From Candidatus Omnitrophota bacterium (GTDB taxonomy: Bacteria; Omnitrophota; Gorgyraeia; Gygaellales; Profunditerraquicolaceae), in NCBI GenBank assembly GCA_028717245.1, contig JAQUOD010000001.1, positions 230,586-294,585 on the forward strand: a DNA stretch of 64,000 nt, read 5' to 3'. Below, one piece after another: positions 35,559 through 38,500 of this stretch; the first letter of the stretch is position 1, and each line of letters begins with the position of its first letter. A program made the position numbers.

Positions 35559-38500
35559 TTAGATACGCCTGTATCAAAGTATCAAGTGTCAAGGTATCAA
35601 AGTCAGATTATTTTTTGACACTCTGATACACTGATACTTTGACACTAGTTGTCATTTTACTTTTCTTTTAGATATTTCGCTGCCAGTTCCGGCGGCGTGG
35701 GCACGACATAAAAACCCGAACCCCACTCAAAACCGGCGACGCGCGTTAATTTAGGCATTAATTCAATGTGCCAGTGATAATACTCTACCCCTCCATCTCC
35801 GTTAATCGGAGAAGAATGTATGATAAAATTATAAGCAGGGCTGGCAAAAATCCTTTTTATTTTAGCGATAGTCTCTCTTAATATAGCTGCCAGCTGGGGT
35901 ATTTCATCCTGTGTCATTTGATAAAAATGGCTATTATGCTTCTTAGGGATAATCCAGGTCTCAAAAGGAAAACGCGACACAAACGGACAAAATGAAAGGA
36001 AATATTTATTTTCTAATATTATCCTTTCCTTTTCCTGTGTTTCCTGCCGTATGATATCGCAGAATATACAACGTTCCCGGTAATTAAAATAATCCTGCGC
36101 CCCCTTAATTTCTTCCATCACGTTTTTAGGCACCATGGGCAGCGCAATAAGCTGGGTATGCGGATGTTCCAGCGATGCGCCGGCTGAAGGGCCGTAATTC
36201 TTAAAAAGGAGTATATATTTTAGACGCTTATCTTTTACCAGATCCGATCCCCGCCGGCAACACATAAGGATAATCTTCTCTACTTCTTCGTTTAATAAAT
36301 CCGGCAGGTCCTTATTATGATACGGCGTTTCAATGAGCACCTCATGCGCCCCTACTCCATTCGACATATCATATATACCCAGGCCTCTTCTGTCCAAATC
36401 GCCTTCAATCTGCAGCGCAGGAAATTTATTGGAAACAACGCGGACCTGCCATCCGGGGGTATTAGGCTGGGTCGAGGGGCTGCGAAAAACATCTATCTCA
36501 GGCGGGGTTGAGGCTTCGTTACCATAGCAGAAAGGACACGCACCCCCTCTCCAGATGTGCGGTTCATGTTCGAAATCTTCTGGCTTACGGGGGTTATCGG
36601 TATCTACTATGACCCATCTGCCGCCGATAGGATCCCTTCTTAATTCTGACATTTTAAACTTCAACCTCTCTTAAAAATTTTGCCGCATCTTCAGGGGGCA
36701 AAGGGCAAATGTAAAATCCCGTGCCCCATTCAAAACCGGCTACGCGGGTAAGCCGCGGCATAATCTCAATATGCCAGTGATAATCCTGGTCTATACTCTT
36801 CCAGTAACCTACCTTTTGCCGCCTAAAAGGGGCGGTATGCAAAATATAGTTGTAAGGCGGATCATTCAGGCCTTTCTTTAGTTTTGATAGGACTTTTTTC
36901 AAAATCCTGCCCAGGTTCAAACGCGCATTCATATCCATATTGGTAAAATCACAGGAATGCTTTTTAGGCAGAATCCAGACTTCAAAAGGAAACCTTGCCG
37001 CAAAGGGCGTAACGGCAATAAAACCGTCTATATCAAGGATGAGCCTATCCTTGGATTCCAGTTCCTGCCTGATCAAATCGCAAAATACGCAGCGCTCATG
37101 ATAATCGTAGTATTGCCGCGCGCCTACCAGCTCTTCCTTGACGCGTTTAGGATTAACCGGAGTAGCGATTAACTGGGAACGTGAATGCTTGAGCCTGCCG
37201 CCCCCGGCTATCCAGCCATAGTTTTTAAATACCAGGACATATTTAAAACGCCTATCTTTTTCTAAATCTGTAATCCTATCTATATAACAGGTTATCACCT
37301 TTGCCACCTGCTCTTCGCCTAAATCTGCCATATTAGCGATATGCTTATTCGTCTCTATGACAATTTCATGCGCGCCTACGCCGTTCATCATGTCATAAAG
37401 GCCCTTGCCCCTTCTGCCCAAGTCTCCTTCTATCCTTAAAAAAGGCGAGATACTCGGTACCACCCTTAATTCCCATCCCGGCTTATTGACAGGAGTAAAG
37501 TTAGGCCTTACGGCATATATTTCCGGCGGAGTCTGGGATTCGCTACCTTCGCAAAAAGGGCAGGGCTGCTCGACATAAGCCTCCTCAGCATGCCCTGAAA
37601 ATTGGTCGGGCCGCTTTGCGCGCTCAGTAGCAATAATAACCCATCTACCTATAATCGGATCTTTCCTTAGTTCAGGCATATCGAGAGATTATACCATAGC
37701 TTATTTTTTATGCAAATATTTTTTATAAAATGGAGACGAATTTTTTAATGAATCTTATTGAAAAAAATATTTAACTATTGTAAAATAGCTCAGGATGAAC
37801 CGAAATTAAAGAAACCTGTAGAGATATGAAATTTATAATGCACAGTATAATAAAAAACAATAACTCCATCTTAAAGCCATTTACTAAAAAAGATATGTAT
37901 GATTTCTACTGTGGACAAAAATTGGGTATATTTAACCCGATAGCAAAAAATATATTATATTTTTTCAACCGGCTAATCGGAAAATTTTCTAATGAAGACC
38001 GGATTAATATAGCATGCCTATGCGAACCGCCGAAGTTTTTTTTAAATAACGGGATAATGATCCCCCATGCATATGGAATCACTTTAAGTATTGACGAAAT
38101 AGGTTGTGATTGCCTTATTGGGCAAAATGTCACAATAGGAACAAATGGAAAAAATATACGTTTTAATGGATATACTACGAATCATAAAGCAAGAATAGGC
38201 AACCTAGTCAGAATATATGCTAATGCGGTAATTTCCGGAGAAATAAGAATAGGTGATTGTGTTATTGTTGCCGCATCTTCTGTTGTCACAAAAGATGTCC
38301 CGAGTAAGTCTATAGTTTATGGAAATAACCAAATTAAACCTTTATCCGCGCACCATATCGAATATTTAAAATCAGCCCTATACCACTGCTACAGTCAATA
38401 TGTAAAAATTCCCGGATTGATGTATAAGGACGAAAAGATGTATATCAATACTGAATATCTGCGCAAGCGGGTTTTATTGATTAAGAGCATGGAAACAAAT

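Follow-up and report, generated by a model that had tools for sequence, protein, structure and literature searches.

What can a protein of the galactose-1-phosphate uridylyltransferase (GalT) fold still do once its nucleophilic His has been replaced by Arg, and why is its gene kept next to that of a paralog in which the His is intact? The question is raised by a 64,000-nucleotide stretch of DNA from Candidatus Omnitrophota bacterium (GenBank assembly GCA_028717245.1, contig JAQUOD010000001.1, positions 230,586 to 294,585), hereafter the window, in which two such genes, termed A and B, lie in tandem. Comparison of the two proteins with their relatives points to an answer that we regard as probable: A and B would form an obligate heterodimer with one composite active site, to which B contributes residues in cis and A residues in trans, and one degenerate site. 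The genes and their nucleophile positions are as follows (At, numbering of the ADP-glucose phosphorylase At5g18200).

36654-37679, minus strand: gene A, 341 amino acids, GalT/ADP-glucose-phosphorylase-like subunit without the nucleophile; proposed non-catalytic partner.
35657-36664, minus strand: gene B, 335 amino acids from a TTG start, with an intact HxHxQ motif; proposed catalytic subunit.
37179-37181, minus strand: codon CGT for Arg167 of A, which occupies the place of the nucleophilic His (At His186, E. coli GalT His166), from codon translation and alignments.
36152-36166, minus strand: H167-P-H169-T-Q171 of B, that is the zinc His, the nucleophilic His and the Gln, preceded by E (EHPHTQ), from codon translation.

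A and B can be aligned end to end (50% identity, E=2e-119), and both match the Pfam N- and C-terminal GalT domains, PF01087 and PF02744, above the gathering scores. A preliminary description of the window had reported two overlapping, collinear GalT-like genes, the HPHTQ gene first and the KHSRSQ gene second. The full-length alignment and the motifs are borne out, but the order is reversed, the Arg copy A being upstream in transcription, and the 11-nucleotide overlap is probably not real, as it hinges on the TTG start of B. The homologous start of B is probably the ATG at 36652, which lies 1 nucleotide past the TAA of A, is preceded by GAGAGG and would yield a protein of 331 amino acids.

The KHSRSQ motif of A (K-H165-S-R167-S-Q169) was found at 37173-37190 by exact codon translation, and R167 falls in the column of At His186 and E. 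coli GalT His166 both in HMMER alignments against solved structures and in a MAFFT alignment of 289 sequences. The replacement of the nucleophilic His by Arg in one copy, as claimed in the preliminary description, is thus confirmed, with no His in the nucleophile column of A when it is aligned to E. coli GalT and the ADP-glucose phosphorylase. Codon translation also agrees with that description in that the CPFC zinc knuckle and HWHIE are kept in the Arg copy; both are present in A and B. The structural zinc site of E. coli GalT consists of C52, C55, H115 and H164, and the zinc ligands of the two proteins, i.e., the CxxC and two His (C40, C43, H113 and H165 of A; C43, C46, H116 and H167 of B), are invariant in 76 of 76 copies of A and 74 of 74 copies of B. 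The HxHxQ motif with the second His as the nucleophile is found in B (H169) and is broken in A (R167), which makes A a member of the fold, not a catalytic member.

In a sample of 80 species-representative Omnitrophota loci, orthologues of A occur at all 80, and the A-then-B tandem is adjacent at 76, the contigs of the other four stopping inside or right after A; the pair is therefore conserved in related genomes, a point that the preliminary description had proposed to check. Among 81 copies of A, the nucleophile column contains R in 75, H in four, K in one and I in one, whereas all 74 copies of B have His (counts from column reading on the MAFFT alignment, which replaced a regular-expression motif count that had missed 46 of 150 representative sequences). 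Across the orthologues the Arg of A is written with all six codons, CGT, CGC, CGG, CGA, AGG and AGA, which is a signature of long purifying selection for Arg, and A is better conserved than B in 71 of 73 species. An error of sequencing or assembly at the Arg codon, or decay of A as a pseudogene, could be imagined because CAT to CGT needs one transition only. The recurrence of Arg in 75 species-level orthologues with six different codons, together with an open reading frame of A that is intact everywhere and better conserved than that of B, nevertheless leaves this explanation a negligible chance: A is not decaying, and an error in the SRS codons, which the preliminary description had named as a possible refutation, is excluded.

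The best match of both proteins in the Protein Data Bank (PDB) is At5g18200 (PDB 1Z84, 2H39; E 4e-72 for A and 1e-68 for B), and E. coli GalT (1HXP) is far more distant (E about 1e-19 for A and about 1e-23 for B). Neither protein reaches the cut-off of 448 of the NCBIfam PRK11720 equivalog, i.e., the E. coli-type GalT, B scoring 137 bits and A 124.6; for TIGR00209, with a cut-off of 102.1, B is above (126.2) and A just below (101.4). A and B belong to the class I GalT fold (HIT branch III). Of the GalT-family label given in the preliminary description, the fold is hence correct, but by sequence comparison both proteins are ADP-glucose-phosphorylase-like and not GalT proper.

What A may contribute depends on how the active sites of this fold are built. 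At5g18200 and the class I GalTs form homodimers in which each site is located at the subunit interface and depends on the neighbouring chain (bioRxiv 10.64898/2026.09.13.751320). In human GALT, Gln188, His186 and Asn97 belong to one chain and Arg48 to the opposite one, and the hexose-phosphate pocket is formed by loop 334-346 of one chain and Gln188/Asn173 of the other (PMC5081055); intersubunit contacts R48A-F99B and R51B-D98A have also been reported (PMC8513031). In the class I GalT fold, each active site is thus built by two chains: the cis contribution of one chain comprises the zinc knuckle, Asn strand, FKNxG and HxHxQ, and the trans contribution of the other its N-terminal RxxR arginines and its C-terminal loop. 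A, B and canonical relatives from an exhaustive search of representatives were compared, and positions that are at least 75% conserved in the family, but not so in A or B, were screened. The features concerned are the following.

37452-37454, minus strand: Ser76 of A, replacing a conserved Asn of the nucleotide-binding strand (At Asn94, human Asn97); codons verified.
37611-37622, minus strand: R20-A-K-R23 of A, the N-terminal arginines (E. coli R28/R31, human R48/R51), conserved; trans role from PMC5081055 and PMC8513031.
36584-36595, minus strand: N24-P-R-K27 of B, the positions of the lost trans arginines, from counts in columns At41 and At44.
36705-36740, minus strand: C-terminal loop AGFEWGTGFYIC of A (residues 314-325), homologous to the trans sugar-binding loop of GalT, from entropy and PMC5081055.

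The two copies have lost different parts of the same site. In the At N94 column, S is found in 77 of 80 copies of A and N in all 74 copies of B and in 89% of the canonical relatives, and the At His186 column is R or K in 76 of 81 copies of A as opposed to H throughout B. Conversely, the column of At Arg41 (E. coli R28, human R48) is R in 79 of the 80 scored copies of A, with one gap, and that of At Arg44 (E. coli R31, human R51) is R or K in 79 of 80; in B the former contains H (35), N (12), K (5), S (4), R (4) and others, so that R is found in only 4 of 74 copies, and the latter K (43), A (8), G (6) and L (6). In At numbering, B retains N94, N173, S181, H184, H186 and Q188 and lacks R41 and R44, whereas A retains R41 and R44 and lacks N94, S181 and H186; the full active-site set of At5g18200 is present only in A and B combined. 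Segment entropies, computed over 74 paired species, follow the same division. The trans segments are less variable in A than in B (N-terminal segment, 0.50 versus 1.04 bit; C-terminal loop, 0.38 versus 0.83 bit), and the cis segments are less variable in B than in A (Asn strand, 0.50 versus 0.92 bit; zinc knuckle, 0.57 versus 0.88 bit). The losses of A are thus cis residues and those of B trans residues of one composite site, which leaves the other site, B in cis and A in trans, complete. As E. coli residues 75-78 and 311-312 were placed wrongly by MAFFT (gaps), the equivalence of At N94, E. coli N77 and human N97 rests on visual recognition of the local motif V-x-N-x-[FY]-[PA]-A-L. Neither A nor B conserves Asp78 of GalT. 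Lacking both cis N94 and H186 (N94S, H186R), A is unlikely to be a classical ping-pong uridylyltransferase, as the preliminary description had stated for the Arg copy.

We propose that B, with a complete cis set (N79, N156, S164, H167, H169 and Q171), and A, with a complete trans set (R20, R23 and loop 314-325), together form one working site that would use the usual covalent nucleotidyl-His ping-pong mechanism. The reciprocal site, composed of S76, G161 and R167 of A in cis and N24 and K27 of B in trans, would be dead, and Arg167 and Lys164 would load it with positive charge. A would then be a conserved pseudo-subunit that B requires to complete its active site. Paralogy, residue states, conservation, complementarity, synteny and fusions are observed directly in the sequences; the physical heterodimer, its activity and its substrate are inferred.

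The fusions are three natural A-B proteins of 596-599 amino acids (P0121, P0271 and P0272), which come from independent assemblies and are 52-56% identical to each other. Their A module retains the invariant N-terminus MSELRK..W..AVERAKRPNDF, the C-terminal half and the loop AGFEWGTGxYINP, and it is without the zinc knuckle, the GxH motif and HxHxQ, there being no Pfam N-terminal GalT domain in it. Their B module keeps the N, FKNxG and EHxHTQ and begins at CPFC, so the whole RxxR segment is gone. Read from sequence, the fusions argue that complementarity has been carried to deletion and that the two modules act as one unit. In an AlphaFold2 (AF2) model of P0121 (mean pLDDT 78.5, pTM 0.77), the B-like module superimposes on 1Z84 with a TMt of 0.83. 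The model bears out the fold, and its overall arrangement is fairly confident, which is supportive without discriminating between the readings; the trans loops are of low confidence, and no contacts are readable from the model. The fusion genes lie in the order pgm-...-tyrS-[A-B]-gap-pgk-tpi. In another relative, P0159 (871 amino acids), an extended N-terminal region of low complexity is followed by two complete GalT-like modules in one chain, each with an intact HxHxQ motif (HAHSQ and HPHSQ). This protein resembles a covalently joined homodimer, in contrast to the A-B fusions, whose modules are degenerate.

A could also be the enzyme itself, as a homodimer or within A:B, using non-covalent chemistry; Arg167 might, for example, stabilise the transition state of a direct in-line phosphorolysis or transfer that has no nucleotidyl-His intermediate. 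The strong purifying selection on Arg167 (75 of 81 copies, six codons) would fit such a role, as would the retention of the zinc ligands, N153, G159 and Q169 and the gain of extra basic residues beside the site of A, where At183 is K or R in 66 of 81 copies. However, A has also lost the nucleotide-strand Asn, B has lost the trans arginines that would serve the site of A, and in sister lineages and the fusions it is the cis half of A that erodes or is deleted while the remainder is kept. Moreover, no HIT-family enzyme with Arg in place of the nucleophile was found in the literature searched. We therefore consider catalysis by A very improbable. Of the roles offered in the preliminary description, that of a regulatory or pseudo-enzyme partner is favoured by the complementary losses and the fusions, and that of altered chemistry is weakened.

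The same losses bear on whether A and B interact at all. As the family is normally homodimeric, and solitary A-like genes and Arg-less B-like relatives exist in other lineages, the two might be co-transcribed as separate homodimers, B being an enzyme of somewhat impaired activity and A a protein that binds a ligand or has a regulatory role. B:B would then miss R41 in both sites and A:A any nucleophile, and A:A would put R167 and K164 near R20' and R23', a situation that can be likened to the repulsion proposed between Arg188 of the human Q188R variant and Arg48' (PMC5081055). Reciprocal conservation of segments is not expected of independent homodimers either, and three conserved fusions with complementary deletions argue for joint function. 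Independent homodimers are, in our judgement, improbable.

The proposed heterodimer may have arisen stepwise. In a neighbour-joining tree, A and B each form a monophyletic clade of their own, and the nearest outgroups of A are the still more degenerate A-like proteins P0125, P0134 and P0156. In the four His-bearing copies of A, which are on deep branches, N94 has already become S, and position 41 of the accompanying B is occupied by K or Q, which indicates that the site was compromised before the His was replaced. A single origin of the His-to-Arg change is not supported: none of 50 bootstraps recovered an R/K clade, and the His-bearing copies of A are found in three separate places, so the change occurred more than once or was reverted. 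The resulting evolutionary series, from two intact motifs through N94S with loss of the trans Arg and His-to-Arg to erosion and fusion, would show a shared-site homodimer turning into a pair of catalytic and pseudo-subunit. A further difference between the copies is a conserved insertion, GYWktId.DYHWH, in residues 286-300 of A (about 36780-36824), which lies 5' of HWHIE and is absent from B. The GH57-fused canonical relative P0182 carries the similar DYWSTIEHDFHWH, and it therefore seems that, in the C-terminal half, it is B that has diverged from the ancestral state and not A.

Several observations weigh against an obligate heterodimer. Degenerate A-like genes of other lineages (L083, L086 and L087) have no adjacent B, and an Arg-less, His-bearing relative (L088) is solitary; in the wider family the two thus do not always occur as a pair, and Arg41 may to some extent be dispensable. 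The bootstrap support of the A and B clades is low (50% and 64%, respectively), and the pTM of the P0121 model is no guide as to whether the packing is of the hetero or the homo type. For the trans role of the arginines we rely on homology to human and E. coli GalT, which are about 21-28% identical, and the heterodimer and its activity are likewise deduced from sequence comparison. Finally, A keeps the zinc ligands, N153 and Q169 in nearly all copies, so that its site may not be inert. In the three solitary A-like genes (L086, 1704-2708; L083, 369-1409; L087, 2658-3680), the nucleophile is replaced by S, I or Y and the Gln is lost too, and about 850 nucleotides downstream of the L086 gene contain neither a called gene nor a GalT remnant.

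The retained residues raise the question of whether the dead site has been repurposed. The At183 column is K or R in 66 of 81 copies of A versus E or D in 71 of 74 copies of B. With the charge gained in cis (R167, K/R164 and often R/K163) as B lost its trans arginines, and with N153, Q169 and the zinc site kept, the pocket of A may still bind a phosphate-bearing ligand. A:B would then be asymmetric, with one catalytic site and one allosteric, non-catalytic pocket for a phosphate ligand, and the A-B-gap operon could couple nucleoside diphosphate (NDP)-glucose/glucose-1-phosphate flux to glycolytic state. We put this forward tentatively, as an extension of the one-site heterodimer that is possible but not likely.

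The link to glycolysis comes from the gene neighbourhood, in which the following features accompany A and B.

34524-35543, minus strand: gap, encoding glyceraldehyde-3-phosphate dehydrogenase (Pfam Gp_dh_N and Gp_dh_C), third gene of the unit.
37688-37716, minus strand: promoter-like TTTGCA-17-(TG)TATAAT, from a consensus scan (10 of 12 matches and extended TG); pattern match only.
34481-34508, minus strand: intrinsic-terminator-like hairpin directly 3' of gap, 10 pairs of which 7 are G-C, with a T tail; pattern match only.

Given the promoter-like site before A and the terminator-like hairpin after gap, the transcription unit appears to be A-B-gap. The promoter-like -10 hexamer ends 8 nucleotides 5' of the ATG of A, and for this reason the A-B-gap mRNA may have little or no leader; A is not preceded by a visible Shine-Dalgarno sequence (37680-37716, minus strand), in contrast to B with its GAGAGG. 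The gene order priA-fmt-A-B-gap is conserved, with gap directly 3' of B in 66 of the 80 loci, and the more degenerate A-like protein P0134 is encoded in the same priA-fmt-A-B context.

Between fmt and A, the window contains an open reading frame for a hexapeptide-repeat acyltransferase-like protein (37826-38533, plus strand), the sole plus-strand gene among about 56 open reading frames. As this interval is empty in the 80 related loci, the frame looks like a lineage-specific insertion. The other 55 of the 56 open reading frames of the window (1-64000) are on the minus strand and the GC skew is negative in every 2-kb segment, which is consistent with one replichore and co-oriented transcription. 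The flanks (26408-33963 and 41399-49468, minus strand) carry envelope-sugar genes of the lipopolysaccharide/O-antigen type, including rfbA-like, RmlD-like and dTDP/GDP-sugar dehydratase-like genes, two DegT aminotransferases and GT2 and GT9 glycosyltransferases, as well as genes for a Wzy_C O-antigen ligase, a PMT_2 protein and a B12-binding radical-SAM protein. A monogalactosyldiacylglycerol (MGDG)-synthase-like gene (41399-42541) is near the pair in 35 of the 80 related loci, and the other envelope genes of the flanks are not conserved there. Lying outside priA-fmt-A-B-gap and not being conserved around A-B, the envelope-sugar genes were rejected as a functional clue.

What reaction would the pair catalyse? 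The A-B-gap arrangement probably links the turnover of NDP-glucose and glucose-1-phosphate to glycolysis, and the predicted step is NDP-glucose + Pi <-> glucose-1-phosphate + NDP, feeding glycolysis, with substrate and direction both putative. Among the canonical relatives, P0150, P0182 and P0193 are fusions with GT5 glycogen synthase or GH57, and a Margulisiibacteriota homologue (L091, 4001-5038) is found amid GH57, CBM48, a branching enzyme and an NTP-transferase-PGM fusion, which ties the GalT-like 'ADP-glucose phosphorylase' family to alpha-glucan metabolism and gives contextual support to a possible phosphorolysis of ADP-glucose by way of an adenylyl-His intermediate. Together, the gap (gap-pgk-tpi) linkage and the fusions to glycogen enzymes point to a little-studied NDP-glucose phosphorylase step in bacterial alpha-glucan/glycolytic metabolism; neither this step nor the GalT-like family is mentioned in the first 300,000 of the 445,374 characters of a large 2024 review on alpha-glucan enzymes.

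The A proteins (annotations of P0001-P0120) are named 'galactose-1-phosphate uridylyltransferase' or 'UDPglucose--hexose-1-phosphate uridylyltransferase' by NCBI/JGI. Judged from the residues present, a covalent intermediate is not possible for A, and the naming of these nucleophile-less proteins is a phylum-wide, systematic over-annotation. Reconstructions of Omnitrophota metabolism that count two GalTs or deduce a Leloir pathway are thus probably wrong, and A alone or B alone, when expressed, is not likely to be active. GalT-fold enzymes are symmetric homodimers in textbooks, and, if the proposal is true, A:B would be the first natural asymmetric one-site heterodimer of this fold. In the literature searched, there was no mention of a pseudoenzyme or heterodimer of the GalT/HIT family, or of GH57 with GalT, which suggests that the complementary-loss arrangement of adjacent copies is new for the GalT-like family within that literature.

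How does the putative heterodimer compare with known systems? At5g18200, to which A and B are about 40-44% identical, shares the fold of two HIT halves, the CxxC zinc knuckle, HSHSQ with the nucleophile His186 and a dimer with intersubunit sites. It is, however, a homodimer with two equivalent sites, whereas here A is without His186 and Asn94 and B without Arg41 and Arg44. The class I GalTs of E. coli (1HXP) and human (GALT, 5IN3) are of the same superfamily branch and dimer architecture and are about 27-28% identical; unlike them, A and B are found in priA-fmt-A-B-gap and not in a gal operon. In heterodimers of wild-type human GALT and its Q188R variant, which occur in galactosemia, an Arg in HxHxQ is opposed to Arg48 from the other chain, and the site concerned is inactivated (PMC5081055, PMC8513031), but this is a pathological point mutation that affects the Gln instead of the nucleophile, and the partner has no compensating change. 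In function, the closest parallel is the GlgC/GlgD ADP-glucose pyrophosphorylase of Firmicutes (and the small and large subunits of plants), which also acts in NDP-glucose metabolism and in which the inactive one of two adjacent paralogs modulates the active one in a heteromer (PMC9093745). A and B, too, are adjacent paralogs of which one lacks a catalytic residue and both are under purifying selection. GlgC/GlgD differs in its unrelated fold, in being a heterotetramer and in that GlgC is active alone, whereas the catalytic site of the A:B pair is predicted to include residues from A, the putatively inactive subunit.

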